IMG/VR virus record: IMGVR_UViG_3300032291_003129
Origin: an uncultured virus (IMG/VR IMGVR_UViG_3300032291_003129)
Lineage: Duplodnaviria > Heunggongvirae > Uroviricota > Caudoviricetes
Reading direction: 5' to 3' (one strand)
DNA: 20,000 bases
In this document: one piece after another, positions 1-20,000 of the stretch
Numbering within the stretch: the stretch's first letter is position 1
Layout of the letters: the number at the start of each line of letters is the position of its first letter
The notes under the pieces: generated by a model
Told to the model about the DNA's origin: nothing
The model's database searches: none
The model's input: the letters and a program-made list of their open reading frames with translations, nothing else
Translations under genes and position numbers: made by a program

Positions 1-123
1 AGTCAGACAGGAGCATCAAGTAGTAAATTTATTGTAGGTGCTCCATTCCAATTTTATTTTGGAACGGTAAAAGGTGCCACAGCATTAGATAAATTCAAAA
101 CAAAATACTCAATAGGTGAATAA
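1..123 (+). CDS. 3' end of an upstream hypothetical (probably virion structural) protein, truncated by the window start
   Basis: Frame 1 is open from base 1: SQTGASSSKFIVGAPFQFYFGTVKGATALDKFKTKYSIGE*, with TAA at 121-123 overlapping the GTG start (116) of the next gene. Not in the ORF track. Confidence 0.8.
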   Translation, partial: SQTGASSSKFIVGAPFQFYFGTVKGATALDKFKTKYSIGE

Positions 124-2618: not shown

Positions 2619-3700
2619 TGGAAGATTTATATAATATTATAATTTCGCCTGAAACCATTAAGGGGGACCTTTCAACAGTAACTTATAGTGGTGTTTCTGT
2701 AGGAGTTTACTCTGCAATGACTCAAGTTGTCAGCTCAGGTACTGACGGGTCGTCAACATTAACTGGATTAACAATTCCAATTCTAATAAGACAAACCGCG
2801 GTTGATGTAGGGTATTATAGTCCATTTGATGGTGCAATATTACAAAAAGATGTAGTTGCAAATTTCATCTTTTCTTCAACAACATCAAACCCTTATGTTT
2901 ATAATGTATATAACACTTCAAGTGAGTTTCAAAAATTCCTTGACTTATCTGCTTATAAAGTAGATTGGGGTGATAATTCACCAAAACAAACAATTACAAG
3001 TTATACGCCTGATTCACTTAGTCATACATATGCAACGGCTAATGCTCAATATACAATAGTTTTAGAACAAACAAATCCATGGGGTGTAACAAAAGTTGCT
3101 AAGACAATTACAACACCATATGAGAATGTTGTGATTAATAATCCAAATGGAGAAGCATTCTTTATACCTGCAGGTGGTAATTGGTTGAATACGCCAATAA
3201 GTTATGATTACATATTCTCAGGAGATGCTGTTAATGAAATTTCCGCCCAAACCTCAAACAATTATGTGACGGTCCCATTTACAATATCAGGACTAACCAA
3301 GTCAAGAATAACTGAATTAGCTTTATACGGTACTCCAAAATATCAAGTAGGTGTTCCTGTAATTAAGAATGGTCAAATATGGGGAGCTATCAGTGATATG
3401 AATTTAATATTTACAGCATATACTGTTCAAGAAGTTAACTACTATGACTATAATGATGGTACAACAATATTTTTTGAACAATCTTCAGGATTTACTCAAA
3501 ATAATTTATCACAAAGACCAATAACAAAAGAGGAAGTTTTATTGAGGGTTATTGACCAACCACAGATACAAACTAATGTTTTTGTAGAGAGAGGAAAGAA
3601 TTCAGCATACGAAAGAATTCAAAGATTAGGTGAGGTTGATAATTTGGGTGATATGATAAACTATGGGTATAGTTTTTTTAATGTTACGAAAAAAGAATAA
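2618..3700 (+). CDS. Phage structural protein with a PKD/Ig-like domain (360 aa)
   Basis: YKVDWGDNSP...SLSHTYATANAQYTIVLEQTNPWG resembles the PKD signature (W-D/x-F/W-G-D-G...H-T-Y...Y-T-V-x-L...N-x-x-G). TAATG coupling to the upstream gene. Confidence 0.65.
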   Translation: MEDLYNIIISPETIKGDLSTVTYSGVSVGVYSAMTQVVSSGTDGSSTLTGLTIPILIRQTAVDVGYYSPFDGAILQKDVVANFIFSSTTSNPYVYNVYNTSSEFQKFLDLSAYKVDWGDNSPKQTITSYTPDSLSHTYATANAQYTIVLEQTNPWGVTKVAKTITTPYENVVINNPNGEAFFIPAGGNWLNTPISYDYIFSGDAVNEISAQTSNNYVTVPFTISGLTKSRITELALYGTPKYQVGVPVIKNGQIWGAISDMNLIFTAYTVQEVNYYDYNDGTTIFFEQSSGFTQNNLSQRPITKEEVLLRVIDQPQIQTNVFVERGKNSAYERIQRLGEVDNLGDMINYGYSFFNVTKKE

Positions 3701-3704
3701 AGGG

Positions 3705-3712
3705 TATTTATA
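3705..3712 (+). promoter_or_regulatory. TATTTATA intergenic motif (putative phage late promoter)
   Basis: Lies in the 17-nt gap 5 nt before the HNH ATG. The same motif recurs in three other intergenic gaps. Confidence 0.5.
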
Positions 3713-3717
3713 AGAAT

Positions 3718-4383
3718 ATGAAAGTTTGTAATAAATGTAATACTGAAAAAACTTTAGAAGATTTTACTTATCGTAAAGATACTGAACAATATGAAAGTAT
3801 ATGTTGTGATTGTGTTAAACAATATAATAGAGAATACTATATCAAAAATAAAAAAAAAATAATAGATAGAAGTAATTTATATTATAAAGAAAATACTCAA
3901 AATGTTTTGAGAGTTACAAAAAAATATAGAGAAAATAATATTGAGAAAGTAAAACAAAGAAAGTCAGATTATCATATTAAAAATAGTGAAAAGATTAAAG
4001 AAAAAACTAAAAATTGGCGAAAAGAAAATAAAGAAAAAAGAAATAAAACAGAAAGAGAGAGACGAAAAAATAATACTTCACATAAATTAGTTCATTATTT
4101 AAGAGTAAGAACTAATTTTTATATTAAAAAAATGAATATAAGTAAATGTAATCCATCATTAAAAATTATTGGGTGTTCTCCTGAGTTTCTTAAAGAATAT
4201 ATTGAAAAAAAATTTACAGATGGAATGTGTTGGGATAGAATGGGAAAAGAGATACATATTGACCATATAATTCCATTATCTTCTGCTAAATCTGAAGACG
4301 AGATTTATAAATTGTGTCATTATACAAATCTTCAACCTTTATGGGCTGAAGACAATTTAAAAAAAAGTAATAAAATATTATAA
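3718..4383 (+). CDS. Free-standing HNH (homing) endonuclease with N-terminal zinc finger (221 aa)
   Basis: N-terminal CNKC...CCDC, a K/R/E-rich helical middle, and C-terminal HIDHIIPLSS...HYTNLQPLWAEDNLKKSNK (HNH core). Markedly more A-rich and basic than its neighbours. Confidence 0.88.
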   Translation: MKVCNKCNTEKTLEDFTYRKDTEQYESICCDCVKQYNREYYIKNKKKIIDRSNLYYKENTQNVLRVTKKYRENNIEKVKQRKSDYHIKNSEKIKEKTKNWRKENKEKRNKTERERRKNNTSHKLVHYLRVRTNFYIKKMNISKCNPSLKIIGCSPEFLKEYIEKKFTDGMCWDRMGKEIHIDHIIPLSSAKSEDEIYKLCHYTNLQPLWAEDNLKKSNKIL

Positions 4384-4392
4384 AGAAAAAAA

Positions 4393-5301
4393 ATGGCAAT
4401 AGGTTCATATGGTACTATAAGACCTTCAGACGTAAGTCCTGAAGATGTACAAATTTTGTTAAATTACACACCATCAAGAGATGTTACGGATAACTTTGTC
4501 CTTACTGAACTTGATGCTCAAACTATATTAAAACCTTATTTCAATAATACTGAAACAGGAGGTAATGCTGGCGTTGAGGTTCTTGGTGGATTATATAATT
4601 TAACATTACCTGCGGAACAATTCAATGCTCTTGGATTCTACACACTTTATTTAAGACCCGCACAAATTAGAACTGTAATTACAGATTGCGGAGTGTTGAG
4701 TGCATTACCGAACGTAAAAGGAATTATAATTGATGTTACTAATGTACCTGTACAATATCAAAATAAATTTGTACCTCAAGGTTTAGTAGGGTTTAGAATT
4801 GAGTATTTAAATTCCGATGGGTCAAAAATACCTAACTTCTTTAGAGTTGTTACATCATCTTTCTTTTGTGAGCCAGTAGTAATTAATGAAGTTAATACAA
4901 CACAAAAATCTGTGAGATATAGATATGTTGATGGCACATCTAATTTAATTTTCTTAACACTTTCACCATCATCTTCACCAACAAATAAGCCAAACGCAAC
5001 ACCGTATATTGGACAACCAAGTCAGAATATTATCATAACTAATACATTCTTCAATCCTGTAACATTAGAGGTTGAAATGGTTGAATACGATATTTCATCT
5101 CTTGCAATTGCTCTTTATGGTAATCAAACTAAGTCTATTGATGATGGTATCTACACAATTTACGATAGTGAAGATAACATCTACAGACAATACAACTTGT
5201 ATGAGATTAGAGACCAATTTAACGCATTATTGTATGAGGTTAGACAGAGTAGAGGAAATAATATTGATTTCAGTAAAAACTTCACAAATATAACCACTTA
5301 A
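4393..5301 (+). CDS. Hypothetical phage structural protein (302 aa), putative baseplate component
   Basis: Clean ORF with an A-rich leader, coupled by TAATG to the gpI-like gene. No motif recognised. Confidence 0.75.
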   Translation: MAIGSYGTIRPSDVSPEDVQILLNYTPSRDVTDNFVLTELDAQTILKPYFNNTETGGNAGVEVLGGLYNLTLPAEQFNALGFYTLYLRPAQIRTVITDCGVLSALPNVKGIIIDVTNVPVQYQNKFVPQGLVGFRIEYLNSDGSKIPNFFRVVTSSFFCEPVVINEVNTTQKSVRYRYVDGTSNLIFLTLSPSSSPTNKPNATPYIGQPSQNIIITNTFFNPVTLEVEMVEYDISSLAIALYGNQTKSIDDGIYTIYDSEDNIYRQYNLYEIRDQFNALLYEVRQSRGNNIDFSKNFTNITT

Positions 5302-8279
5302 TGGCAACATCAAGAACTAAATATTTTTATCCACCTAGACCAGGAAGCGGTGCGGGTACATTTTCTGACAACATTGTAGGTTTACAAACCGTTGAAGGTG
5401 GTGGACTTACGCAAGGAAATTTTGAGTTTACTACAGGTGTTACTGAAAAAGTTAATAGAAAATTCAATGTAGGAGCGTTCTCGGAACCAATCTCATTGGA
5501 TATGTTGAACATTGACAGTTTAGAGGAGAGTAGAAGAATTTTATCAACTCAATTCAGAGTATATCCTAATTATGATGTCAGCCAAGTTCTGAATTTTTCA
5601 ATGTATGGTTCATTGGCAAAAAGATTCAGTGTATCTATTACTCAAATCATTAACTATTTTCCAGCGTCGTTAGATGTTGTTTTTAATAGTTCAGACTATA
5701 CGACAGGAGACACTGCGATTAATATTTCATATGATGTTCAGAATGATGAAACTTACTTCCAAGTTAATGTTAATAGAATTAACAATCCGTTTGATATAGA
5801 TTATTCTTTGAGTGCGGCAACAAATCTTTCTGCAAGAGAATTACAAGTTTCTCCTTACAGAGATTTATATGCAACTTACTTAGATTATTGTATTAGTATA
5901 AATGATAACATATATAATGTATTATCATTTGCACCATCTGATACTTTATCTTCGGGTTACTTAACATTTTATGTTTCAGGTGCTCCATTTGGAACAACGG
6001 CAAGTACAATTAATGATGACTTCCAAATTAGACCAAATGATTTTATAGTTGATAAAGTATTTGCCGAGACGTTTAATGAAGTTGAAAAGTTTTTAGTTAA
6101 TAGATTAATAAGACCTGAGTATACTGCAATATTTCAAGTACCTCAACAAAATGAATATGGTCAAGTATATACTGACTATCAACAAGTAACATGGCCAAAA
6201 AATGGACCTTGGAATTTAGATATTAGGTCTTTCTTATTTGATAGATACTTGGAAGAAATTCAAGCAATTGCAATTAACTTAGATGAATTTAAAACCAATT
6301 TAATTTCAAGATTTTTAGTGACAGATTCATTAAAAGAATTTGATACTTTAGGGCATAAAGTAGAAAAAATATTCCAAATATATGGTAGAAGTTTTGACCA
6401 AATAAAACAATTCGTTGATGGATTGGCTTACATGACTTCGGTTAATTATAATCCTTCAAATGATATCCCGTCAGAGTTATTGGTTAATTTGGCAAGAACT
6501 TTAGGTTGGTCATCAAATTTTTCACCAATAACTAATGAGGATTTCTTAGGGTCAGTCTTTGGTAATACAAATACTCCAACTTACCCTGGATATGCAAGAG
6601 CCTTAACACCAACGGAATTAAACTACTCGTTTTATAGAAATTTAATATTAAATGCTTCTTATTTGTTTAAGTCAAAAGGAACAAGAAGGTCTATTGAATT
6701 TTTATTAAGATTGATAGGTGCGCCTGATTCATTGATTGAATTTAATGAACATATTTATTTGGCTGACCAAAAAATTAATTTGGACCAATTCTATACTCAA
6801 TGGGCTCAAATATCTGGTGGTACTTATGTTGAACAAAGTCCAAGTTATTTGACCAATGACACATTTAAAGTTAAAGGGCAATTATTTACAGCATTTACTG
6901 CAACATCATCTTATCAAGATACAAGTATTAGATTAGTTGATTATCCTATGGATATTGAAGGTTATCCAAAAGCGCCACTTAACACTGAAACTTATTTTTT
7001 CCAAATAGGTTCAGGTTGGTATGAAGAAACACCACAACATAGAAGCCCTGATGAAGTGGTAATTACTGGTGCGGTTTTTACAGGTCAAAACTTTGATATT
7101 CAAACACAATTAATGCCGTTTACTTATGGTCAAACATATTTGAATAGATTTAGAAATTTTCCATATATGAATGAAGGTTTCAAACTTCAAAAAGTTGTGG
7201 ATAATAATAAATCATGGTTACAAGACGATAATAAAATTAGAGTATCAACACAAGGAGACTACAACGCTTATTATTATGTTGATAATGAGAAATTAGTTTT
7301 AAATGTCAAGAATGTTGATTTGTTTTTAAATCCTGCTCAAGGTATTGTTTACGATGTGTGGGATGAATCAAGAAGATATGACTATCCGATACCTGAATCA
7401 GGTTTAACGGTTGGATATCCCGTGCCAGGTGGTGTGGATTGGACATATATTAATCCTGAACCAAAGAAGAAAACATTCTTTGAGTTTTCTCAAACTTTTT
7501 GGGAGAATATGATTAATGTAAGAAACAGACAATACATTTCGGATGGTAAGACTGGAGGGTATCCAACACTTCAATCTATTTTTTGGAAATATATTGAATC
7601 TGAACAAACAGTGGGATTGCCAAACAATCAATATACATATCAAAAGTTAATTGACTATGTGAATGGTATTGGTCCTTATTGGTTAAAGTTAGTCGAACAA
7701 ATGATGCCTGCAACTACCATTTGGCAAGGGGGAATAAAATTAGAAAATAACGTATTCAACAAACAAAAATTTGTTTATAGAAGACAAAGAGGTTGTCAAT
7801 TCATACCAGTTCCCGTTGACCCATGTTATATTATATCAAACATATTTGATTATACATGTTCAACAGAATATGTTGACTTCTTTATCTATCCTTGGTTGAA
7901 CGGTGATGTTACGGTATCTAACTTTAGTAGTATATTAGTTAATAGAGTGAATAATATGTTGGCATCAAGTGGATTAACTTTAAGTCAATGTGTTGAAAAC
8001 TCAATCGCAACTAATTGGTATGTAGATTTAAGAATTGGAACTGATGTTATTATTCAAAGTTCATTCTATAATGGATATGGATTAACTGATGTACCTACAA
8101 ATTCTCAATGGAGAACTGCATTGATTAATTATTTACCTAATATATATGAATATGGCTATACATATTTCCTAAATGGTAATACATTAACCATAACTAACTT
8201 AACTTGCCAACCTCAAAATTTACAAGAGACTGTTTATTTAAATGTTGGGATAAATATTAATATAGATTGTACTAACTAA
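5301..8279 (+). CDS. Putative baseplate wedge protein (P2 gpI / Tail_P2_I-like core; 992 aa)
   Basis: PSELLVNLARTLGW...FYRNLILNASYLFKSKGTRRSIEFLLRLIG (KGT at 6675-6683) and a later LVEQMMPATT match the L-x-x-LA...KGT...PA pattern of gpI-like wedge proteins of contractile tails. Confidence 0.62.
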   Translation: MATSRTKYFYPPRPGSGAGTFSDNIVGLQTVEGGGLTQGNFEFTTGVTEKVNRKFNVGAFSEPISLDMLNIDSLEESRRILSTQFRVYPNYDVSQVLNFSMYGSLAKRFSVSITQIINYFPASLDVVFNSSDYTTGDTAINISYDVQNDETYFQVNVNRINNPFDIDYSLSAATNLSARELQVSPYRDLYATYLDYCISINDNIYNVLSFAPSDTLSSGYLTFYVSGAPFGTTASTINDDFQIRPNDFIVDKVFAETFNEVEKFLVNRLIRPEYTAIFQVPQQNEYGQVYTDYQQVTWPKNGPWNLDIRSFLFDRYLEEIQAIAINLDEFKTNLISRFLVTDSLKEFDTLGHKVEKIFQIYGRSFDQIKQFVDGLAYMTSVNYNPSNDIPSELLVNLARTLGWSSNFSPITNEDFLGSVFGNTNTPTYPGYARALTPTELNYSFYRNLILNASYLFKSKGTRRSIEFLLRLIGAPDSLIEFNEHIYLADQKINLDQFYTQWAQISGGTYVEQSPSYLTNDTFKVKGQLFTAFTATSSYQDTSIRLVDYPMDIEGYPKAPLNTETYFFQIGSGWYEETPQHRSPDEVVITGAVFTGQNFDIQTQLMPFTYGQTYLNRFRNFPYMNEGFKLQKVVDNNKSWLQDDNKIRVSTQGDYNAYYYVDNEKLVLNVKNVDLFLNPAQGIVYDVWDESRRYDYPIPESGLTVGYPVPGGVDWTYINPEPKKKTFFEFSQTFWENMINVRNRQYISDGKTGGYPTLQSIFWKYIESEQTVGLPNNQYTYQKLIDYVNGIGPYWLKLVEQMMPATTIWQGGIKLENNVFNKQKFVYRRQRGCQFIPVPVDPCYIISNIFDYTCSTEYVDFFIYPWLNGDVTVSNFSSILVNRVNNMLASSGLTLSQCVENSIATNWYVDLRIGTDVIIQSSFYNGYGLTDVPTNSQWRTALINYLPNIYEYGYTYFLNGNTLTITNLTCQPQNLQETVYLNVGININIDCTN

Positions 8280-8281
8280 TA

Positions 8282-10414
8282 ATGGCAGATTTTAATTATA
8301 TTATATCGGTAACGGGTGATTGTCAATCAAATAGTGTTGGTGCTATGTCATTATCCTATACAGGAGGTACAGACCCGTATACTACTGAATGGGTATTACC
8401 TTATATCACATACACAGCAACAACAAATCCTGCGGTTTTAACTAATTTAAGTGCTGATACATACGTTCTTAGGGTTAATGATAGTACTTTACCTATAAAC
8501 CAAGAATTTTTCATTAACGTTCCAATATCAAGTGGAGTTTGTTCAAGCATTACTGCGGTACAAGGTACGACTTGTTCGTTGGATAACGGTTCTGTTACTG
8601 GTACATCTACATCAGAGTATTCCTCAACAAATTATTATCTTTATTTTGCGGATAATACTTATATTACCTCTGCAACAACTAATACATCATATATTTCCTT
8701 TGGAAATTTAACTGCAGGAACTTATTACATGACAGTTGAAGATTTAGGAGGATGTTCAGGTACAACTTCTGATTTTATAATTGAAGATTCGGACCCATTA
8801 AGTTATGGTTTATATGTTGTACCAAATTCAAGTTGTGGTGGAACTTCAATTGGTAAGATTTTTGTTACGGGAGTAACGGGTCATGCACCATATACTTATT
8901 TGTGGAATACAGGACAATCAGGCAGTACAATTACAGGATTAACAAGTGGAAATTATTCGGTTCAAGTAACAGATAATTACGGTTGTACATTAACTCAAGA
9001 TGCATATATTGCTGATGTTTCTCCAATTGGCCTAAGACCATTCCAAGCAACACAGCCTAGTTGTTTTTCATCTGATGGTACAATAACTGTTCAAATTACT
9101 GGAGGAACTGCGCCATATTATTATTCAGCATCAACTGGAAATATTTTTATAGGTTATCCTCAAACATGGACACTATCAGGTTTATCTGCGGGGCAATATA
9201 ACTTTCAAGTTACGGATGCTGCGTTATGTACTGTTATTGGTGGTACTACTTTAGAAACACCTCAAGGAATCGCTTCATTAAACATAAGTGCTCAAGGGTC
9301 AACTTGCTCAAGCTCAGGAGGTACAATTACTGTTTCAGTTATTGGAGGAACAACTCCATATGTTTATACTTTAATATATCCAAATGGAAATACGGTTAAT
9401 GTTAATAATACACAAACAACCCAAGTATTTTCAAATTTGAGTACTGGTACATATACTGTGGCTGTTGCAGATGCCGTTGGTTGTTCATACATGCAAGAAG
9501 TAACTTTATTTGCAACCAATACTTTTACAATATCAACACAAGTAACAGGAACAACTTGTAACCAAAATAATGGTACTATTTTGGTAACAAAAACTACGGG
9601 TGGTACTTCACCTTTTACCTATACTTTAGATGGAAATGTAAGTGTATTAGATACTGCTTTATCTGCTATAACATTTAATAATGTTGCGGGTGGACAACAT
9701 ACAGTAACTGTATCAGACGCTACGGGATGTACTCAAACAACTCAAGTATATGTTGGGCAAAGTGTTCCTTTAGATTTTATATTATATAAAACATCTTGTG
9801 GTACAGGTTCAAGTGGTAGTTTGACGGCATTTATTTCATCAGGTACTCCACCATATACATTTAATTGGTCAAGTAATGTTTCAAGTAATCCTCAACAAAT
9901 TCAAGTAACAGGATTAACCGCTGGAACATATAGTTTAACTGTAGTTGACAATGCAGGTTGTTCTTTGAAAAGAACAAGTATTATTGATTGTGACGAGACT
10001 TACGTATCGTATCAAACTTACGTTATGGGTTCTGAGAAATTCAATGTTGAATCATTAACTAAGTATGGTTTATCACAAATGTTGAATGAAGGATTTAATG
10101 ATTTAACTTCAGGTAATACAAGTTGTGGTTTAGTGACTGCAACATTTGGAGTTAAAATTTCTGTTAATCCTTTAGGTACGACTGCAAGTTCAAATTTCTT
10201 TACAACAACTTCATTAGTTACTGCGCCAACAGACAATCAGTATTATGATACTGTGAAAAATTTATTAAGTACAATATCGGGTATCGGAAATATAATTGTT
10301 GACGATTCCAATAACCAAATAACTATTGAAACAAATCCTGGTGACACATCATTAAATGGACAAGAAATTGTTGTGGATTTAACAATAGTATATGACATTA
10401 TGTGTATATCATGA
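8282..10414 (+). CDS. SprB-repeat-containing virion protein (710 aa; about 7 Ig-like repeats plus a ~140-aa C-terminal domain)
   Basis: Repeated C...G-x-I-x-V...GG-T-x-P-Y-x-Y/W...G/N-L-x-A-G-x-Y-x-V-x-V-x-D-x-x-G-C units, e.g. SGTPPYTFNWS...TGLTAGTYSLTVVDNAGC. No evident signal peptide. Confidence 0.78.
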   Translation: MADFNYIISVTGDCQSNSVGAMSLSYTGGTDPYTTEWVLPYITYTATTNPAVLTNLSADTYVLRVNDSTLPINQEFFINVPISSGVCSSITAVQGTTCSLDNGSVTGTSTSEYSSTNYYLYFADNTYITSATTNTSYISFGNLTAGTYYMTVEDLGGCSGTTSDFIIEDSDPLSYGLYVVPNSSCGGTSIGKIFVTGVTGHAPYTYLWNTGQSGSTITGLTSGNYSVQVTDNYGCTLTQDAYIADVSPIGLRPFQATQPSCFSSDGTITVQITGGTAPYYYSASTGNIFIGYPQTWTLSGLSAGQYNFQVTDAALCTVIGGTTLETPQGIASLNISAQGSTCSSSGGTITVSVIGGTTPYVYTLIYPNGNTVNVNNTQTTQVFSNLSTGTYTVAVADAVGCSYMQEVTLFATNTFTISTQVTGTTCNQNNGTILVTKTTGGTSPFTYTLDGNVSVLDTALSAITFNNVAGGQHTVTVSDATGCTQTTQVYVGQSVPLDFILYKTSCGTGSSGSLTAFISSGTPPYTFNWSSNVSSNPQQIQVTGLTAGTYSLTVVDNAGCSLKRTSIIDCDETYVSYQTYVMGSEKFNVESLTKYGLSQMLNEGFNDLTSGNTSCGLVTATFGVKISVNPLGTTASSNFFTTTSLVTAPTDNQYYDTVKNLLSTISGIGNIIVDDSNNQITIETNPGDTSLNGQEIVVDLTIVYDIMCIS

Positions 10415-10847: not shown

Positions 10848-12761
10848 ATGACTACATATTCAATTCTTGTTACCAACAATGCTCCAGGTTGTAATAATGA
10901 CATAGAGCAACAACTTAGTGTAACAGGCTGTACAACATATATTGTTAGATTAGCTTCTAATTCAAATGCACTTGGTCCATTTAATGTTTATGTGGACACA
11001 AGTATTTATTATTCAGCACAAACAAGAACAGAAATGTTAAATGGTGTTGTTGTTAATTTGTCATGTGTAACACCTTCACCAACTGCAACTCCAACTCTAA
11101 CTCCAACTCCAACTCAAACGGACCCATTAACAGGTGCAACACCAACAACAACTTCAACACCAACAAATACTCCAACTAATACAACAACTTCAACAGTTAC
11201 ACCGACTAATACTGAAACTCCAACAACAACTCCAACAAATACGCCAACTAATACAACAAGTGTAACTCCAACTAATACGGCAAGTGTAACTCCAACTAAT
11301 ACAGAGACTCCGACAAATACACCGTCAGAGACTCCTACAAACACGCCAACTAATACCGAAACATCTACGCCGACTCCGACAGAGACTCCTACAAACACAC
11401 CAACAAATACTGCAAGTGTAACTCCAACTAATACTGAAACTCCAACACAGACTCCAAGTGAGACTCCTACAAACACGCCAACAAATACACAAACACAGAC
11501 TCCAACTAATACAGAGACTCCTACAAACACACCAACAAATACTGCAAGTGTAACTCCAACTAATACCGAAACATCTACACCAACTCCAACTAACACTGGG
11601 ACAGTAACTCCAACTAACACTGAGACAGTAACTCCAACTAATACAGAGACTCCGACAAATACACCTTCAGAGACTCCTACAAACACGCCAACTAATACCG
11701 AAACATCTACGCCGACACCTACAAATACTCCTACAAATACTGAGACTTCAACACCTACAGTAACACCAACTAATACAGAAACACCTACAAATACTCCAAG
11801 TGAGACTCCTACAAGCACTCCAACTGAAACACCAACTCAGACTCCAACAGTTACTAGCACACCTACTACAACATTAACATCAACACCTACTGAAACAGCA
11901 ACTTCAACACCTACTCCAACTAATACTGCAACAGTAACTGCTACAGCTACTGAAACTCCTACTCCAACAGTAACGGCTACATCAACTGAAACTCCAACAC
12001 CAACGGCTACTGCCACACCTACTGAGACGGCAACTCCAACTCAAACTGCAACTATAACTTCAACACCTACTGAGACACCAACAAATACACCAACGGTAAC
12101 ACAAACAAATACACCAACTAATACAGCAACACCAACACAGACTTATACTCCAACAACTACAACAACATTAACTCCAACTCCGTCAACTACACCACCTGCG
12201 TTATTGGCGTATATGATTATTGACCAAAACTCCACCACACCAAAAGCTAATTTAAATGCTTGGATGACATCAAAAGGAAGTACTTGGAAAGGATTTAATG
12301 GGGTCCCTGCGGCACCTAGTCAAATTCAGGCAACATTTAATAATCAAATGAACGCTTATATGAGCTATAGCGGATGGGGTGTTTATAATCCAGCAATAAT
12401 CACATCTCCAATATCTACGACATCTGGTGGAGTTGATGCTTATGGCCAACCAATTAGTGCGTATAAATTCCAAACAGCACAACTTCCTGTAGGGGTTATG
12501 TCAGCAACAAGTTGGGTTACTTGGTTTGTATCTACTGCGGCAACTAATGGACAACAATATACAACAATATACAACGGAAGTGATGCCGCTGGTTTACCAA
12601 GAACAATGACTACAAACTACTCAAATCTTATTGTGAATTATACTGGTAGTACAAATATGCCAGCAGGAGTTTATAAAGTATATACAACATATACAGATTC
12701 AACATTTAATGTTGCGGTGGCAAATTTACCACAATATTATAGAGGTGGGGATTTAATTTAA
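10848..12761 (+). CDS. Thr/Pro-rich stalk protein (637 aa): short Cys-containing N-domain, mucin-like stalk, ~185-aa globular C-domain
   Basis: Translation shows about 74 aa of complex sequence, a TPTNTPTET-type tract, then a W/Y-rich C-terminal domain. Confidence 0.8.
11070..12197 (+). repeat. Coding low-complexity (Thr-X)n repeat, about 376 aa
   Basis: Thr (sometimes Ser) at nearly every second residue, with X = P, N, E, A, V, Q or S. Includes an 89-nt near-perfect internal duplication (11286-11374 vs 11628-11716). Confidence 0.92.
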
Positions 12762-12789: not shown

Positions 12790-15700
12790 ATGAGTTTTAA
12801 CTATAAAAACCCCGTATCTGCAACTTTAATTACAGGGCCGTTCTCAGTAGTTCGTGAATCTACTGCAGGTACTAACTTTAGTGTTGATACTGTTGGAGGA
12901 TATATGGAAGTATTCTATTTATCCGATTTGAATTGGACAATTCCTCAACAAACTTATGATGAGGGAGGTCCTGTACAATATTCAGGAAACTCAATACCAA
13001 TTGAGTTTTCTTATGGGGGTGATTTAAATCCACCACCTGTTCTAGAAATACTTACAATGTATAATGATGGTATTTCTTCTGGTAGAAGAAGATTGGGTAT
13101 GTTGGTATTTGTTCAAGAAACTCAGACGACATATCAGTACCATATTCCAAATTTTGAATCTCTTTGGAATGCCGCAGAAGCGGATAATTGTATAGATACA
13201 TTTACTACTGGATACCAAGTATATAATGCAGATAAAGACACTTTGGAGCCAAAAGCCTCAGGACAAGCATTTGTAAATGCTTGGACAGGGTCAACTATTG
13301 AAGGGGTTAGTGGTGTTACAAGAGAAAATGCAAGATGGAAAATTGCCAATTTAAATGACACCTTTGTTACAGGTGGTACATATTTTTCTGCGACTACAAC
13401 TTTACAGTTATATGAAAATGATGGTCAAACAATAACAATCACAGGATTTACAGGAACAGTAACTGGAGGAACATATAATAGTGGTACTTCAACAATAACT
13501 TTAAATAATAGTGATGGTAGTGTAGTATCAATTACGGGTATTACTTCAGGGTCTGGCTCAGCCTTATCAGTTGGAGATGGAACTACGACAGTTACTTCTG
13601 TTTCAGGGATTACATTTAGTGGAGCATCGGTTATAAATAATGGTGGTGGAAACATTACAGTATCAATAACAGGAGGTACTGGTACAAATGGTACAAGTGG
13701 AACTAGTGGTACTAGTGGTACTAGTGGTACTAGTGGTACATCAGGATTAAGTGGTGTTAATGGAACAAATGGTACTTCAGGTACTAGCGGTACTTCAGGA
13801 ACAAACGGTACTAGTGGAACAGATGGTACTTCAGGAACTAGCGGTACAGATGGAACTAGCGGTACTAGTGGAACAGATGGTACTTCAGGAACTAGCGGTA
13901 CAGATGGAACTAGCGGTACTAGTGGAACAGATGGTACTTCAGGAACTAGCGGTACTACAGGAACATCAGGTACAAGCGGTTCTAACGGAACATCAGGAAC
14001 ATCAGGTACAGATGGTACTTCAGGAACAAACGGTACTAGTGGAACAGATGGTACTTCAGGAACATCAGGTACAAGCGGTTCTAACGGAACTAGCGGTACT
14101 TCAGGTTCAAATGGAACATCAGGAACTAGTGGCTCAAACGGAACATCAGGAACTTCAGGAACAAACGGTACTAGTGGTACAGATGGAACTTCAGGAACAA
14201 ACGGTACTAGTGGAACAGACGGAACAAGTGGTACTTCAGGGTTAAGTGGTGTTAATGGAACAAGTGGTTCAACAGGTACTTCAGGAACTAGTGGTACAAC
14301 AGGAACTAGCGGTACAGACGGAACTTCAGGAACTAGTGGTACAACAGGAACTAGCGGTACTAGTGGAACAGATGGTACTTCAGGTACGGACGGAACAAGT
14401 GGTACTTCAGGTACGGACGGAACAAGTGGTACTTCAGGTACTAGCGGTACTAGTGGAACAGATGGTACTTCAGGAACAAGCGGTACTTCTGGAACAAGTG
14501 GTTCAACAGGAACTAGTGGTACTTCAGGAACAACAGGAACAAGTGGAACAGATGGAACTTCAGGTACAACAGGAACTAGTGGAACAGATGGAACTTCAGG
14601 AACTAGCGGTACAGATGGAACTAGTGGAACTAGCGGTACAGATGGAACTTCAGGAACTAGTGGAACTTCAGGAACTAGTGGAACTTCAGGTTCAACAGGA
14701 ACCTCAGGAACTTCTGGTACTTCGGGAACTAGCGGTACTGATGGAACAAGTGGTACTTCAGGAACTAGCGGTACGGATGGAACTTCAGGAACAGATGGAA
14801 CTAACGGAACTTCAGGTACAGATGGAACATCAGGTACTAGTGGACTAAGTGGTGTTAACGGTACATCAGGTACTTCAGGTACAAGTGGAACAGATGGTAC
14901 TAGCGGTACATCAGGAACAACAGGAACAAGTGGTACAACAGGAACTAGCGGAACTTCAGGTACAGATGGTACTAGCGGTACTTCAGGAACTAGTGGAACT
15001 TCAGGAACTAGCGGTACGGATGGTACTTCAGGAACTAGTGGAACTTCGGGCACAGATGGTACTAGCGGTACGAATGGAACTTCAGGAACTAGCGGTACAG
15101 ATGGAACAAGTGGTACATCGGGAACTTCTGGCTCTTCAGGAACTAGTGGTACAACAGGAACGTCAGGTTCGAGTGGTACAACAGGTACTTCAGGAACTAG
15201 CGGTACAGATGGAACTTCAGGAACTAGCGGTACAGATGGAACTTCAGGCACTAGTGGCTCAAGTGGTACGACAGGTACATCAGGAACAAGCGGTACGACA
15301 GGAACTTCTGGCTCTTCAGGAACTAGTGGTACAACAGGTACATCTGGGTCAAGTGGAACTACAGGAACTAGTGGAACTACAGGAACTAGTGGAACTTCGG
15401 GTACGGATGGTACTTCAGGAACTAGCGGTACTTCAGGAACGGATGGAACATCAGGTTCGAGTGGAACTACAGGAACTAGTGGAACTTCGGGTACAGATGG
15501 TACTAGCGGTACTTCAGGAACTAGCGGTACGGATGGTTCTTCAGGTACTAGCGGAACTTCGGGTACAAGTGGTACAACAGGAACTAGCGGTACAGATGGA
15601 ACTTCAGGTACTAGTGGCTCAAGTGGTACAACAGGTACATCAGGAACAAGTGGTACGACAGGAACATCAGGAACTTCAGGTTCAACAGGAACCTCAGGGA

Positions 15701-18093
15701 CTTCTGGTACAGATGGTACAACAGGAACAAGTGGTTCTTCAGGAACTAGTGGAACTTCAGGAACATCTGGTACATCAGGTACTAGTGGAACAGACGGTAC
15801 TTCAGGAACTTCGGGAACTAGCGGAACAGATGGTACATCAGGAACTAGTGGTACAACAGGAACATCAGGTTCGAGTGGTACTTCAGGTACAGATGGTACA
15901 AGTGGTTCTTCAGGAACGACAGGAACTAGTGGAACTTCGGGTACAGATGGAACTTCAGGAACAACAGGAACTAGCGGTACTAGTGGAACAGACGGAACAT
16001 CAGGAACTTCTGGTTCAAGTGGTACTACAGGTACATCAGGAACTAGTGGAACAACAGGAACTAGCGGTACTAGTGGAACAGACGGAACATCAGGTTCAAG
16101 TGGAACTTCAGGAACTAGCGGTACAACAGGAACTAGCGGTACAACAGGAACTAGCGGTTCAAGCGGTACAACAGGTACATCAGGTACAAGTGGTACAACA
16201 GGTACTAGTGGAACAGACGGAACATCAGGTTCAAGTGGAACTAGTGGTACAGATGGTACATCTGGCTCAAGTGGAACGACAGGAACTAGTGGTACTTCAG
16301 GAACTAGCGGTACAGATGGTACATCGGGAACTTCTGGCTCAAGTGGAACTAGCGGTACAACAGGAACATCGGGTTCAAGTGGTACTAGCGGAACTACAGG
16401 TACATCAGGAACTAGCGGTACAGATGGAACTTCAGGTACCAGTGGTACAACAGGTACATCAGGAACTAGCGGTTCTTCAGGAACAACAGGAACTAGTGGC
16501 TCAAGTGGAACTTCAGGTACAAGCGGTTCTTCAGGAACTAGCGGAACAACAGGTACTTCAGGTACAAGTGGTACTTCAGGTTCAAGTGGAACTAGCGGTA
16601 CTTCAGGTACATCTGGTACAACAGGAACGTCAGGTTCAAGTGGTACATCAGGAACTACGGGTACTTCTGGTTCAAGTGGAACGACAGGAACAAGTGGTTC
16701 TTCAGGAACTTCTGGAACAAGTGGTTCTTCAGGAACATCAGGTACAACAGGAACTAGCGGTACATCAGGAACAACAGGTACTAGCGGTACATCAGGTACA
16801 TCTGGTACTTCAGGGTCTAGCGGTTCGTCAAGTACAAGTGGAACTTCAGGTTCAAGTGGAACCTCAGGAACTAGCGGTACAACAGGAACGTCAGGTACTT
16901 CAGGGTCTAGTGGTTCGTCAAGTACAAGTGGAACTTCAGGAACAAGTGGAACAACAGGAACATCTGGTTCTTCAGGTACATCAGGTACAAGTGCTTCAGA
17001 TGGAACTAGCGGTTCAAGTGGTTCAAGTGGAATATCTGGTCAAGCAGGAACTTCTGGGGTTTCAGGAACCTCAGGTACTGCGGGAATAAATGGAACTAGT
17101 GGTACAACAGGAACAAGTGGTACTACGGGTACTTCAGGAACTAGTGGAACAACAGGAACTTCAGGTACATCAGGTATAGGTTCGGCAGGAACAAGTGGAA
17201 CTTCAGGAATAACAGGAACTTCAGGTACATCAGGTATAGGTTCAGAAGGAACAAGTGGAACTTCAGGAACAACAGGAACAAGTGGAACAACAGGAACGTC
17301 AGGTACTTCAGGTACAGGTTCTGCAGGAACAAGTGGAACTTCAGGAGTTACAGGATGTTCAGGATTTGATGGAACTTCAGGTATTAGTGGTACAAATGGA
17401 ATTTCAGGAACTAGTGGTACTTCGGCTACATCAGGAACGTCTGGTACAACAGGAACGTCAGGGACTAGTGGAACATCAGGTACAAGTGGTACATCTGGTA
17501 CTTCGGCAACCGCAGGTTCATCTGGTACATCAGGTACAAGTGGAACATCAGGTACAACAGGTACATCTGGTACAACAGGAACTAGTGGAACATCAGGTAC
17601 TTCAGGACTTGCAAATATTACAAATAACTTTAACGATTATGTTATTACTGCAACAGGAACTGCAGGCCAAATTAATGGTGAAACTAACATGAGATTTAAT
17701 GGTTCAACGTTATCAATCACGGGTGATACAACAATGACAGGTTCATTGACTGCGGCATCTAAATCATTTGATATCCCTCACCCAACAAAAGAAGGGTACA
17801 GATTAAGATATGGAGTTTTAGAGGGACCTGAACATGGTGTTTATTTTAGAGGTAAAACGACAGAAAATGTGATTGAGTTACCTGATTATTGGACAGGTTT
17901 AGTGGATGAGGATTCAATTACAGTTCATTTAACACCAATCAAAGGAGCAATTACTCACTATGTAGTTGATGTTAAAGACAACCAAATTAAAATTGACTCT
18001 TACAACGGAATAATTAACACTTACTATATAATTCACGCTGAACGTAAGGATATTGATAAAGTTTTACATGAGTACAAAACAATTATTGAGTAA
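12790..18093 (+). CDS. Giant G-X-Y (Gly-Thr-Ser) repeat fibre protein (1767 aa), putative tail/virion fibre
   Basis: N-domain with RRRLGMLVFVQE and two 31-aa VTGGTY repeats, ~1311 aa of G-X-Y, a neck NNFNDYVITATG...INGETNMRFNG, and C-terminal KSFDIPHP...LEGPEHGVYFRG...IELPDYW, which I recognise from phage fibre C-termini. Confidence 0.82.
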   Translation: MSFNYKNPVSATLITGPFSVVRESTAGTNFSVDTVGGYMEVFYLSDLNWTIPQQTYDEGGPVQYSGNSIPIEFSYGGDLNPPPVLEILTMYNDGISSGRRRLGMLVFVQETQTTYQYHIPNFESLWNAAEADNCIDTFTTGYQVYNADKDTLEPKASGQAFVNAWTGSTIEGVSGVTRENARWKIANLNDTFVTGGTYFSATTTLQLYENDGQTITITGFTGTVTGGTYNSGTSTITLNNSDGSVVSITGITSGSGSALSVGDGTTTVTSVSGITFSGASVINNGGGNITVSITGGTGTNGTSGTSGTSGTSGTSGTSGLSGVNGTNGTSGTSGTSGTNGTSGTDGTSGTSGTDGTSGTSGTDGTSGTSGTDGTSGTSGTDGTSGTSGTTGTSGTSGSNGTSGTSGTDGTSGTNGTSGTDGTSGTSGTSGSNGTSGTSGSNGTSGTSGSNGTSGTSGTNGTSGTDGTSGTNGTSGTDGTSGTSGLSGVNGTSGSTGTSGTSGTTGTSGTDGTSGTSGTTGTSGTSGTDGTSGTDGTSGTSGTDGTSGTSGTSGTSGTDGTSGTSGTSGTSGSTGTSGTSGTTGTSGTDGTSGTTGTSGTDGTSGTSGTDGTSGTSGTDGTSGTSGTSGTSGTSGSTGTSGTSGTSGTSGTDGTSGTSGTSGTDGTSGTDGTNGTSGTDGTSGTSGLSGVNGTSGTSGTSGTDGTSGTSGTTGTSGTTGTSGTSGTDGTSGTSGTSGTSGTSGTDGTSGTSGTSGTDGTSGTNGTSGTSGTDGTSGTSGTSGSSGTSGTTGTSGSSGTTGTSGTSGTDGTSGTSGTDGTSGTSGSSGTTGTSGTSGTTGTSGSSGTSGTTGTSGSSGTTGTSGTTGTSGTSGTDGTSGTSGTSGTDGTSGSSGTTGTSGTSGTDGTSGTSGTSGTDGSSGTSGTSGTSGTTGTSGTDGTSGTSGSSGTTGTSGTSGTTGTSGTSGSTGTSGTSGTDGTTGTSGSSGTSGTSGTSGTSGTSGTDGTSGTSGTSGTDGTSGTSGTTGTSGSSGTSGTDGTSGSSGTTGTSGTSGTDGTSGTTGTSGTSGTDGTSGTSGSSGTTGTSGTSGTTGTSGTSGTDGTSGSSGTSGTSGTTGTSGTTGTSGSSGTTGTSGTSGTTGTSGTDGTSGSSGTSGTDGTSGSSGTTGTSGTSGTSGTDGTSGTSGSSGTSGTTGTSGSSGTSGTTGTSGTSGTDGTSGTSGTTGTSGTSGSSGTTGTSGSSGTSGTSGSSGTSGTTGTSGTSGTSGSSGTSGTSGTSGTTGTSGSSGTSGTTGTSGSSGTTGTSGSSGTSGTSGSSGTSGTTGTSGTSGTTGTSGTSGTSGTSGSSGSSSTSGTSGSSGTSGTSGTTGTSGTSGSSGSSSTSGTSGTSGTTGTSGSSGTSGTSASDGTSGSSGSSGISGQAGTSGVSGTSGTAGINGTSGTTGTSGTTGTSGTSGTTGTSGTSGIGSAGTSGTSGITGTSGTSGIGSEGTSGTSGTTGTSGTTGTSGTSGTGSAGTSGTSGVTGCSGFDGTSGISGTNGISGTSGTSATSGTSGTTGTSGTSGTSGTSGTSGTSATAGSSGTSGTSGTSGTTGTSGTTGTSGTSGTSGLANITNNFNDYVITATGTAGQINGETNMRFNGSTLSITGDTTMTGSLTAASKSFDIPHPTKEGYRLRYGVLEGPEHGVYFRGKTTENVIELPDYWTGLVDEDSITVHLTPIKGAITHYVVDVKDNQIKIDSYNGIINTYYIIHAERKDIDKVLHEYKTIIE
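13681..17613 (+). repeat. 9-nt-period coding repeat (GGW ACW TCA/AGY) encoding about 435 G-X-Y triplets
   Basis: 3933 nt = 1311 aa of GTS/GTD/GTT/GSS/GTN triplets with no Pro, and three 2-residue interruptions near the 3' end. Confidence 0.95.
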
Positions 18094-18100
18094 TCAAAAT

Positions 18101-18145
18101 AAAAGGAAAAGAAAGGGGAGTTATCACTCCTTTCTTTTTCTTTTT
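18101..18145. terminator. Rho-independent terminator, probably bidirectional
   Basis: AAAAGGAAAAGAAAGGGG (18101-18118) pairs with CTCCTTTCTTTTTCTTTT (18127-18144): 18 bp with two G-U pairs and an 8-nt loop, 7 nt after the fibre stop codon, with a U-rich 3' side and an A-rich 5' side. Confidence 0.8.
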
Positions 18146-18149
18146 AACA

Positions 18150-18157
18150 TATTTATA
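18150..18157 (+). promoter_or_regulatory. TATTTATA intergenic motif (putative phage late promoter)
   Basis: Immediately downstream of the terminator and 30 nt before ATG 18188, where a new promoter would be required. Confidence 0.55.
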
Positions 18158-18187
18158 GTCAATAAATTAATTGAAAAAAAACATTAA

Positions 18188-18589
18188 ATGTCGATATTAA
18201 GTTTAAAAAATGGTATAAGTTCTATTAGTGGTGCAACCGTAAAAGGAGATTTTAACTATTTTTCTGGAGGTACTAGAGCATTAGGACCGTCAGATGTAAC
18301 AGGTTTTTATTCTGGATATGATGCACCTGAAAATGGGTATTCCGTATATAAAACATTTGGTGCGAGTGGATTTACAATAACTATTGCAGAAGATACATTT
18401 GAATTGAATTACATTTTAATTCGGATGGGAGGAACTGGTTCTACCGTTGACCAAAATGTTACATGGGCAACAAATACTGATTCTGTTTTTGTTAATAGCG
18501 GAATAACAACACCACAATTCTATATACTTACACAGGAGGGTCAGATAATTGCAGCCCAAGATGGTAGTGCGATAGAATATCAACATTAA
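18188..18589 (+). CDS. Small hypothetical virion protein (133 aa), possible fibre adaptor
   Basis: ORF with an A-rich leader, core GPSDVTGFYSGYDAPENGYSVY and C-terminal FYILTQEGQIIAAQDGSAIEYQH. Confidence 0.7.
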   Translation: MSILSLKNGISSISGATVKGDFNYFSGGTRALGPSDVTGFYSGYDAPENGYSVYKTFGASGFTITIAEDTFELNYILIRMGGTGSTVDQNVTWATNTDSVFVNSGITTPQFYILTQEGQIIAAQDGSAIEYQH

Positions 18590-18594
18590 GATAA

Positions 18595-18602
18595 TATTTA
18601 TA
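18595..18602 (+). promoter_or_regulatory. TATTTATA intergenic motif (putative phage late promoter)
   Basis: In the 17-nt gap, 4 nt before ATG 18607. Confidence 0.5.
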
Positions 18603-18606
18603 CAAA

Positions 18607-20000
18607 ATGGCAAACATATTAATATCAAATTTACCTACATATATAGGAAACACTGACGGTGTTTTTGTGGTTATGAACGACAGTGGTAATACCACAACAT
18701 ATAAAGTAACCAAAGAAGATTTAATTGGGGCCTCAGGTACTTCGGGTACTAGCGGTACTTCAGGCACTAGTGGAACTTCAGGTACATCTGGTACATCAGG
18801 AACTAGTGGAACATCAGGTACTTCTGCAACCGCGGGAACTGCGGGTTCATCAGGAACAAGTGGGACTTCGGGTACATCAGGAACTTCTGGTACTACGGGT
18901 ACATCAGGAACATCTGCAACTAGTGGAACTTCAGGTACAAGTGGAACATCAGCAACAGCTGGTACTACGGGTACATCAGGAACTTCAGGAACATCAGGTA
19001 CAACAGGAACTAGTGGTACTTCAGGAACATCAGGAACATCTGCAACTAGCGGAACTTCAGGTACATCTGGTACTTCAGGCTCAACAGGAACTAGCGGAAC
19101 ATCTGGAGGAACAGGTTCTACAGGAACAAGCGGTACAAGTGGAACTTCAGGAACATCTGCAACTAGCGGAACTTCAGGTACTTCAGGCTCAACAGGAACT
19201 AGCGGAACATCTGGAGGAACAGGTTCTACAGGAACAAGTGGTACTTCGGGTACAACAGGAACTAGTGGAACATCTGGCACAACAGGAACATCAGGCTCGT
19301 CAGGTACAACAGGAACTAGTGGAACTTCAGGTACTTCGGCAACTGCAGGAACTGCGGGTTCTTCGGGTACAAGTGGTACATCAGGAACTAGTGGTACAAC
19401 AGGAACTAGCGGAACATCTGGTACAACAGGAACTTCAGGTACAACAGGAACTTCAGGTACTTCAGCAACCGCAGGAACTGCAGGTTCATCTGGTACTAGT
19501 GGAACATCAGCTACTTCAGGAACTAGTGGTACTTCAGGTTCAACAGGAACTAGTGGTACATCAGGAACTAGCGGAACATCAGCGACTTCAGGTTCAACGG
19601 GAACTAGTGGTACATCAGGAACTAGCGGAACATCAGCGACTTCAGGAACATCTGGTTCAACAGGTACATCAGGGACTAGTGGAACATCAGGTACTTCGGC
19701 AACCGCAGGAACTGCAGGTTCATCTGGTACGAGTGGAACTTCAGGCTCAACAGGAACTAGTGGAACATCGGCTACTTCAGGAACATCTGGTACAACAGGA
19801 ACTAGTGGTTCAAGTGGAACTTCAGGTACATCAGGAACAACAGGAACTAGTGGTACATCAGGAACAACAGGAACATCAGGTACCTCGGCAACCGCAGGAA
19901 CTGCAGGTTCGTCTGGTACAAGTGGAACAACAGGTACATCAGGAACTAGTGGAACATCAGGTACAACAGGAACTAGTGGAACATCAGCTACTTCAGGAAC
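18607..20000 (+). CDS. Second G-X-Y (Gly/Ala-Thr-Ser) repeat fibre protein, truncated by the window end (>464 aa)
   Basis: ATG 18607: [40 protein letters not shown] then GASGTSGTS..., with the frame open to base 20000. Absent from the ORF track because it has no stop in the window. Confidence 0.88.
18727..20000 (+). repeat. 9-nt-period coding repeat ([18 protein letters not shown] triplets)
   Basis: About 141 triplets up to the window end. The higher-order unit [12 protein letters not shown] occurs five times. Confidence 0.93.

Follow-up and report, generated by a model that had tools for sequence, protein, structure and literature searches.

A proline-free Gly-Thr-Ser tract of 430 triplets in a putative fibre protein of an uncultured phage: a candidate collagen-like shaft

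Collagen-like fibres of bacteriophages are already known, as are proline-free collagen-like regions of Gly-Thr-Ser (GTS) and Gly-Ser-Ser (GSS) triplets in the Burkholderia protein Bucl3, and a collagen-like protein of a phage was reportedly the subject of 'Bacteriophage collagen' by Smith et al. in 1998. We have analysed a stretch of 20,000 nucleotides from an uncultured virus of the Caudoviricetes (IMG/VR record IMGVR_UViG_3300032291_003129; below, the window), in which one gene (12790-18093, + strand; 1,767 amino acids) joins an N-terminal domain, a Gly-X-Y tract and a C-terminal domain. An earlier note on this DNA had called the tract 'not ordinary collagen', and this holds, since current explanations of collagen stability invoke imino acids, hydroxyproline or Lys-Asp/Glu salt bridges, and over its 430 triplets the tract has neither Pro or hydroxyproline at X or Y nor any basic residue for a salt bridge.

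In bacterial collagens, Pro fills 19-31% of the X positions and Thr 32-48% of the Y positions (PMC8968730), and a survey from 2025 proposed Lys-Glu/Lys-Asp salt bridges as a universal folding code of collagens, those of viruses included (PMC11923368). According to the same survey, (Gly-Pro-Thr)10 stays a random coil as long as no galactose is attached to its Thr. Departures from these rules have been described in Burkholderia, where Bucl3 has proline-free GTS/GSS collagen-like regions of 38-63 triplets (PMC4565658), and where recombinant (GAS)19, free of both Pro and charge, gave a weak triple-helix signal in circular dichroism (CD), with a shallow 220-nm peak at 25 °C that was gone at 50 °C (PMC7682875). 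The view taken in the earlier note, that prokaryotic and phage collagen-like triple helices normally depend on Pro and charged pairs, is too absolute given Bucl3 and (GAS)19.

Sequence pattern and assembled length of the Gly-X-Y tract

The tract (13681-17613, + strand) is free of stop codons and encodes 1,311 residues, namely 433 Gly, 427 Thr, 358 Ser, 47 Asp, 17 Asn, 9 Ala, 7 Ile, 5 Val, 4 Leu and one each of Gln, Glu, Cys and Phe; Pro, Lys, Arg, His, Met, Trp and Tyr are absent from all 1,311 positions. Successive glycines are three residues apart in 424 of 432 intervals (98%), Gly-Gly (a spacing of 1) never occurs, and Gly makes up one third of the residues. These counts bear out what had been noticed before, that Gly stands at nearly every third position over 1,311 residues, that X is mostly Thr or Ser and Y is Ser, Asp, Thr or Asn, and that Pro, Lys and Arg are missing. 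The 'about 435' consecutive triplets given at that time were right in order, but 430 triplets are perfect in the tract as assembled and 350, the first ones, are unbroken. The most frequent types among the 430 are GTS (263), GTT (49), GTD (45) and GSS (35), with Thr at X in 367 (85%) and Ser in 46, and with Ser at Y in 306 (71%), followed by Thr (55), Asp (46) and Asn (17). A Pfam scan of the fibre protein returned Collagen (PF01391) at 551.4 bits (cut-off 27.2, E 7e-170) and no family besides it.

By its runs of triplets the tract divides into an unbroken shaft of 350 triplets (13681-16830, + strand; GTS, GTD, GTT and GSS), which contains nearly all of the Asp, and a C-proximal shaft (16831-17613, + strand), whose 80 triplets form 8 runs and to which belong 8 interruptions and the majority of the hydrophobic residues. 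All 8 breaks fall within the last 264 residues (nucleotides 16822-17497); five are in-register replacements of Gly by Ser or Ala (spacing 6), and three are one-residue deletions of the form G-x-G (spacing 2). Ile, Val, Phe and Cys are concentrated at tract residues 1117-1240, where the interruptions also cluster. Asp is placed at Y in 46 of 47 cases and, with no basic residue present, gives a charge of about -48 per chain, and the density of GTD drops from 6-10 per 50 triplets to 1 toward the C-terminal end of the tract.

A Gly period of three with small hydroxyl residues is formally compatible with a polyproline-II/polyglycine-II bundle, in which the chain would fold back into stacked polyproline-II helices with a flat hydroxyl surface; snow flea antifreeze protein and the T-even gp38 adhesins are bundles of this kind, and the earlier note had considered such a fold for the tract. 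Some short-range order is indeed present, in that Asp/Asn triplets are most often 2-4 triplets apart. However, known polyglycine-II bundles are richer in Gly and have Gly-Gly-X units, whereas here Gly is held at exactly one third without any Gly-Gly, and beta-branched Thr fills most X positions. Over the long range no offset or lag is prominent in the tract (autocorrelation at most 0.18), which leaves it without a periodic turn signal, and its self-identity at the protein level peaks at 0.80, where the mean is 0.77. The model of a single chain has no fold, and tract lengths among relatives, from 53 to more than 800 triplets, are as expected of a rod and not of a closed bundle. The bundle has thus lost support, and we consider it highly improbable.

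The whole tract lies inside a single open reading frame (ORF), and in a six-frame check only the coding frame was free of stops, one other frame of the + strand having 7 and one of the - strand a single one. With so few stops in other frames, the Gly-X-Y repeat casts long shadow ORFs, which are not genes (13425-15251 on the - strand, 608 residues of V-P-E/L repeats; 13751-17692 on the + strand in another frame; and several more on the + strand); that the coding frame is correct follows from its running on into flanking domains with many relatives. Within the tract Gly is encoded 208 times each by GGT and GGA, Thr 215 times by ACA and 184 times by ACT, and Ser by five codons from both of its codon families. 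At the DNA level, tandem-repeat matches with periods of 9 and 18 reach only 62-70%, exact repeats extend to 96 nt at most, and 3,833 of 3,833 101-mers are unique. With its synonymous sites scrambled in this way the tract is not a recent expansion of one unit but a pattern kept at the protein level, and a Gly period held despite scrambled codons points to selection on the protein pattern.

Short reads cannot resolve a tract of this kind, such that a real tract might still be inflated or chimeric in its length or order. For a check of the length, 20 public runs were found to share words with the stretch, and four, all in the form of short Logan contigs, were compared, with runs that shared few of the words left aside; one of the compared runs is labelled a freshwater metagenome. 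In run X1, which may be the window's own sample, exact tract pieces (144-582 nt) have a depth of 51-68 against 54-63 for the unique flanks, and in run X2, from the same study, pieces of the same sizes have 9-12 against 10-12. Equal depth of tract and flanks fits single-copy DNA of one genome and, like the uniqueness of the 101-mers, argues against an artefact. On the other hand, none of the pieces from the four runs spans the tract, and among the 42 related ORFs that share the N-terminal domain, 33 leave their locus before the tract is over, in 27 cases at a true contig end. Complete ORFs with proline-free Ser/Thr tracts come from independent assemblies with 289, 354, 465, 519, 572, 645 and 705 triplets, and loci with the N-terminal domain add complete tracts of 358 and 378. 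Tracts of hundreds of triplets are real for this fibre family; for the phage of the window, 430 is the assembled figure and hence a putative length. That this figure is substantially an artefact of assembly seems to us very unlikely. Apparent 'joints' within the tract in run X5, with sides shorter than 30 letters and a very high summed depth, were taken as cross-matches from other collagen-like genes.

Four contigs from IMG/VR (L006, L009, L010 and L011) carry complete fibre ORFs with 53, 572, 519 and 354 triplets, although their C-terminal domains are identical to one another (all 67.5% identical to that of the window) and the neighbouring enzyme is 100% identical among them. Such a spread in near-identical loci is either a real length polymorphism or an assembly collapse. 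The contig L168, whose C-terminal domain and next gene have 95-97% protein identity to the window (against 14492-19200), carries 340 triplets or more and is cut off within a tract at either end. Its tract and that of the window agree at no more than about 68-77% of the nucleotides, with gap positions in the hundreds, an alignment no better than that of one part of the tract with another. Next to near-identical flanks, this indicates that the shaft turns over much faster than its ends, with the period kept.

Such tracts break short-read assemblies and can pass for terminal repeats, so that the completeness of jumbo phages is misjudged. The 321-kb record G002 (behind L128/L012), which is listed as complete with direct terminal repeats, has collagen-like frames at both of its ends (1,806 residues at 93-5207 and 505 residues at 320273-321196), and its 'terminal repeat' may be a fibre tract where the assembly broke. 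Relatives' genomes hold several such collagen-like genes, and the window holds two.

End domains, a heptosyltransferase in relatives and a candidate triple helix

Residues 1-297 (12790-13680, + strand) form an N-terminal domain that is a probable virion-attachment module, judged by its homologues and by the domains to which it is fused. We found it in 42 of 80 syntenic loci, which had been collected by way of a 992-residue neighbour protein, and in 147 database proteins. Elsewhere it is joined to Peptidase_S74, which is a self-cleaving chaperone of tail fibres and spikes, to a DUF5122 propeller, to DUF2793 or to nothing collagen-like.

The C-terminal domain (17614-18090, + strand; 159 residues) is a predicted beta-sandwich and a probable distal tip or trimerising knob. 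It matches phrog_17490 (E 2.5e-38) and is modelled with a predicted local distance difference test score (pLDDT) of 82-97 over most of its length. Relatives occur in 46 phage records at 40-57% identity, among them 33 of Synechococcus, 2 of Prochlorococcus and 4 of Flavobacterium phages, and IMG/VR holds 561 relatives. In the Flavobacterium phage immuto the domain ends a 'putative tail fiber-like protein' without a collagen tract, and altogether it occurs on fibre-like proteins both with and without a collagen shaft; our literature search found no virion proteomics for immuto. Its last ~75 residues resemble the C-terminal end of the cyanophage Pam1 tailspike (Z 8.0, root-mean-square deviation 1.9 Å over 65 residues), with weaker likenesses to gp53, a tail fibre of AP22 (Z 6.2), and to the fibre of R2 pyocin (Z 5.6), all of these Z values being middling. 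A Foldseek search of the C-terminal model against the PDB gave no match at E <= 0.001, and profile searches with the two end domains among the sequences of the PDB gave 0 matches, such that no solved structure of a homologue turned up; close homologues characterised as standard collagen fibres were what the earlier note had named as counting against its view.

Two relatives (L115 and L147) keep the N-terminal domain and the tract and have different C-terminal domains. With domain swapping thus occurring at both ends, the protein shows the anchor-shaft-tip modularity typical of phage fibres, and its non-collagen ends are of fibre type (phrog_17490 on one side, a domain elsewhere fused to Peptidase_S74 on the other). 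The C-terminal domain would be the distal tip that contacts the host, and the N-terminal domain would connect the fibre to the virion as an adaptor.

A possible source of stability for the shaft was found in the relatives. The profile TIGR04414 (autotransporter O-heptosyltransferase of the TibC/Aah type; cut-off 200 bits) matched in five of five relatives' records with 208-297 bits and in one of five further records with 203 bits, the four misses being fragments rated 4-25% complete. In L009 the heptosyltransferase domain ends an ORF of 1,229 residues that also has FkbM-methyltransferase and GT1 domains and that is convergent with the fibre gene, the stop of which is ~720 nt away; the two are separated by a second FkbM gene, and a GT9 gene follows. 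In L018 a GT1-heptosyltransferase ORF of 1,024 residues lies 32 nt from the fibre stop, beside a methyltransferase-GT34 gene. When the 8-kb flanks of 80 loci with the C-terminal domain were examined, the enzyme was present in 21 of the 27 with a Ser/Thr tract and in 1 of the 53 others, and in this one the ORF is cut by the contig start. Past the glycosylation genes, L018 encodes a protein of 972+ residues with a Laminin_G_3/ConA-like lectin domain (13521-16436, + strand; E 1.6e-18), and L009 one of 769+ residues without a family match (14163-16469, + strand); possibly, these two also belong to the genes for fibres or adhesins.

In peptides rich in Gly, Ser and Thr, TibC attaches heptose to Ser and not to Thr (PMC4358343). 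Taken together with the need of (Gly-Pro-Thr)10 for its sugar, this makes O-glycosylation of Ser at Y a reasonable candidate for the stabiliser of the shaft, and the glycosylated triple helix that the earlier note had proposed gains indirect support from the enzyme next to the relatives' fibre gene. The substrate of TibC also raised the question of a beta-helix for the tract, which was rejected on account of less than 2% hydrophobic residues, a period of three residues and no 19-residue repeat. Although it has 358 Ser, the tract accordingly offers none in the strand-loop-strand beta-helix repeats in which bacterial autotransporter heptosyltransferases (BAHT) find their acceptors.

From the pattern of the sequence, the division of the protein into three parts, the site of its gene within the module and the enzyme beside the fibre gene in relatives, all of which are directly established, we infer a trimer, a helix, its sugars and its position on a virion: the protein would be the homotrimeric collagen-like helical shaft of a virion fibre, probably stabilised by O-glycosylation, a reading to which we give a probability of roughly 0.55. 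In an uncultured jumbo myophage it would most likely serve as a baseplate or tail fibre. Three identical chains would be kept in register by the globular end domains, and the Gly-Thr-Ser tract would be wound into a collagen-type triple helix of about 375-380 nm (1,311 residues at ~0.29 nm, the rise per residue of collagen; PMC8968730). The helix would be stabilised by its great length with anchors at both ends, by hydration of the Thr/Ser hydroxyls and, probably, by O-linked sugars that a heptosyltransferase of the TibC/Aah type, encoded by the phage, would place on exposed Ser or Thr and that the attached domains of this enzyme would extend and methylate. The 47 Asp, in the absence of basic residues, would keep the rods soluble and apart. 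In favour of a collagen-type helix are the Gly period held against strong synonymous drift, the fact that most interruptions (5 of 8) are in register, and globular ends able to set a three-chain register; the wide variation of length among relatives suits a rod.

Much of this evidence would also be accommodated by a flexible, mucin-like glycosylated tether, in which the chains are joined only at their globular ends and the tract is an extended, non-helical brush of sugars on Ser/Thr, the G-x-S/T period being no more than the recognition motif of the enzyme. A tether would suit a tract that the monomer model leaves unstructured and that has neither Pro nor salt bridges, the more so as unglycosylated (Gly-Pro-Thr)10 is a random coil (PMC11923368), and the relatives do carry a dedicated glycosylation island. 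The phage moreover encodes, directly upstream, a Thr/Pro-repeat protein (10848-12761) that is clearly a non-collagen low-complexity structural protein. However, a Gly periodicity of 98% over 1,311 residues, with scrambled codons and mostly in-register breaks, is hard to explain for a disordered linker, the known acceptor sites of TibC are not three-residue sequons (PMC4358343), and (GAS)19 has a triple-helix-like CD signal already without sugar (PMC7682875). We therefore regard the tether, of which the earlier note had named a disordered form, as an unlikely explanation, but as one that deserves more weight than the bundle or the artefact.

Several observations weigh against a glycosylated triple helix. 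A trimer prediction from three copies of the last 259 residues, with alignment, yielded no model; in the monomer model the shaft has a pLDDT of ~31 and no secondary structure, which would be expected of a single collagen chain but lends the helix no support. Host-guest tables of triple-helix propensity give low places to Thr at X and to Ser at Y. The N-terminal domain is modelled by AlphaFold2 (AF2) with a mean pLDDT of only 60, and a fold search with this model (VIA-align) gave a best Z of 4.1 and no usable match. The position of the fibre on the virion is deduced from gene order only and must be read as provisional. As to the enzyme, no glycosyltransferase is encoded in the window, where only 1.9 kb follow the fibre stop, and the gene order past the fibre (a 133-residue gene and a second collagen gene) is unlike that of relatives with an adjacent enzyme. 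Six of the 27 tract-bearing loci have no enzyme within the flank, the association in the other 21 is inflated by kinship, with about five lineages by enzyme identity, and in the complete relative G001 the enzyme lies far from the fibre gene. Finally, TibC is reported to modify Ser only, and within beta-helix repeats, which is another substrate context (PMC4358343).

If the shaft is triple-helical, it would be a natural test of whether hydroxyls and sugars alone can carry a collagen helix, a question that has been asked since Riftia collagen and (Gly-Pro-Thr)10, and it would offer materials work a charge-poor, protease-poor rod of tunable length. A bolder extension, which we put forward tentatively and hold to be somewhat doubtful as a whole, is that the fibre stands for a third principle of collagen-helix construction: a ~0.4-micrometre rod without Pro or salt bridges, the stability of which is written post-translationally by a phage heptosyltransferase/GT1/methyltransferase on the Ser at Y of every Gly-Thr-Ser. 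It would then be an exception to the Lys-Asp/Glu 'folding code', and the tract would also act as a fast-evolving spacer of variable length that sets the reach of the tip from the virion. At ~0.4 micrometre, such a fibre would exceed most tails in length and would alter the picture of how giant phages find their hosts in dilute water.

Genomic setting and neighbouring genes

The gene upstream of the fibre that served to find the syntenic loci, encoding a protein of 992 residues, has 233 relatives in IMG/VR, such that with the 561 relatives of the C-terminal domain the fibre belongs to an abundant family of uncultured jumbo phages. Upstream genes for proteins of 564, 273, 360, 302 and 992 residues are syntenic in 80 of 80 loci, a gene for 710 residues in 77 and one for 118 residues in 71, and the position of the fibre gene downstream of this module (g564-g273-g360-g302-g992-SprB710-g118) is conserved. 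In two relatives, G001 and G002, which are records of 326 and 321 kb rated complete, GPW_gp25 and Baseplate_J match above the cut-off directly upstream of the syntenic module, and a weak sheath-like match, below the cut-off, falls in an ORF of ~1,070 residues. The genomes of these relatives would thus place the fibre gene in the baseplate/tail-fibre module of an uncultured jumbo phage with a contractile tail. A search for Terminase_6C in G001 gave no match.

Searches of phage records revealed no cultured relatives: megablast with window positions 1-10000 and tblastn with the N-terminal domain had no match, and tblastn with the 992-residue protein had one weak partial match only; for this protein the ESM Atlas gave no usable match either. 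As regards the host, SprB repeats, the match to Flavobacterium phages, a G+C content of ~30% and a leader without a Shine-Dalgarno motif are hints toward Bacteroidota. The leader in question, in front of the fibre ATG, is A-rich, and no Shine-Dalgarno motif was found in it. At the other end of the gene, 21 nt past the fibre stop, lies a terminator-like hairpin with a T-run (18114-18133, + strand), which is supported by its position only, as the region has 4 such sites against 3.9 expected from shuffling.

Among the neighbours, the 710-residue protein (8282-10414, + strand) has SprB repeats (PF13573, E 5.6e-17), Ig-like repeats and weak matches to Hoc-like head decoration. The 637-residue protein directly upstream of the fibre (10848-12761, + strand), already mentioned above, consists to ~400 residues of Thr/Pro-rich repeats of the T-P-T-N-T-E type and ends in a domain that matches phrog_15511 (E 3.6e-17), the C-terminal part being matched in 3 of the 80 syntenic loci; it is possibly another target of glycosylation. 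Further upstream, an HNH/endonuclease VII-like gene (3718-4383, + strand; phrog_1035, E 8.8e-13) stands between two conserved structural genes, and since it occupies that site in only 11 of the 80 loci it looks like a mobile homing endonuclease insertion.

Downstream of the fibre, a small conserved gene for 133 residues without a family match (18188-18589, + strand) lies between the two collagen-like genes. It has relatives beside fibre genes in contigs L168-L173; IMG/VR has one relative, without a collagen gene nearby, and among 21 metagenome contigs with relatives the close ones end inside the second tract. The second proline-free Gly-Thr-Ser collagen-like gene (18607-20000, + strand; Pfam Collagen, E 9e-50) encodes 464 residues and is open at its 3' end, where the window stops. 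After a head of 40 residues its tract has recurrent in-register Gly-to-Ala breaks (G-T-S-A-T-x-G), a pattern of interruption more regular than that of the first.

Comparison with described fibres, collagens and glycosylation systems

In the literature covered, which leaves out most subscription journals, we found no link between a phage collagen-like fibre and a heptosyltransferase, and on repeats of the Gly-Thr-Ser type only the Burkholderia paper and no phage fibre. The closest phage proteins are orf028 of cyanophage P-SSM2 (PMC1079782) and EPclA of E. coli O157 prophages (PMC3368898), which resemble the fibre of the window in having a Gly-X-Y shaft between non-collagen ends, in being encoded among tail-fibre genes and in being presumed trimers. 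Their shafts, however, contain Pro and are much shorter, EPclA having abundant Pro at X and ~22% charged residues (PMC11923368), whereas the fibre described here reaches 430 triplets without Pro or any basic residue.

In the composition of its triplets the fibre is closer to Bucl3 and Bucl8 of Burkholderia, with which it shares proline-free triplets of small or hydroxyl residues, Bucl3 having the same GTS and GSS units and Bucl8 (GAS)n. Unlike the fibre, these are bacterial cell-surface or efflux proteins with at most 63 triplets and unrelated flanking domains. In their accessible parts, the papers on them report no glycosylation enzyme and show no triple helix for GTS itself (PMC4565658, PMC7682875).

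The replacement of hydroxyproline by hydroxyl residues that bear sugars is known from BclA of the Bacillus anthracis exosporium and from the cuticle collagen of Riftia (PMC11923368). There the triplets are Gly-Pro-Thr, with Pro at X and Thr at Y, whereas the tract of the window has Thr at 85% of X, Ser at 71% of Y and no Pro, and its glycosylation would be a putative one. With the polyglycine-II bundles the tract shares the three-residue Gly period, but it differs from them in having 33% Gly, no Gly-Gly, no turn periodicity and a widely varying length among relatives.

On the side of the enzyme, the pairs TibC-TibA and Aah-AIDA-I of the BAHT family (PMC4358343) offer the nearest parallel, since in the phage relatives, too, a gene of this type (203-297 bits) stands beside that of a Ser-rich repetitive surface fibre. 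The phage enzyme differs from TibC and Aah in being encoded by a phage, in being fused to GT1 and FkbM-methyltransferase domains, and in its presumed substrate, which would be a Gly-X-Y tract and not a beta-helix.

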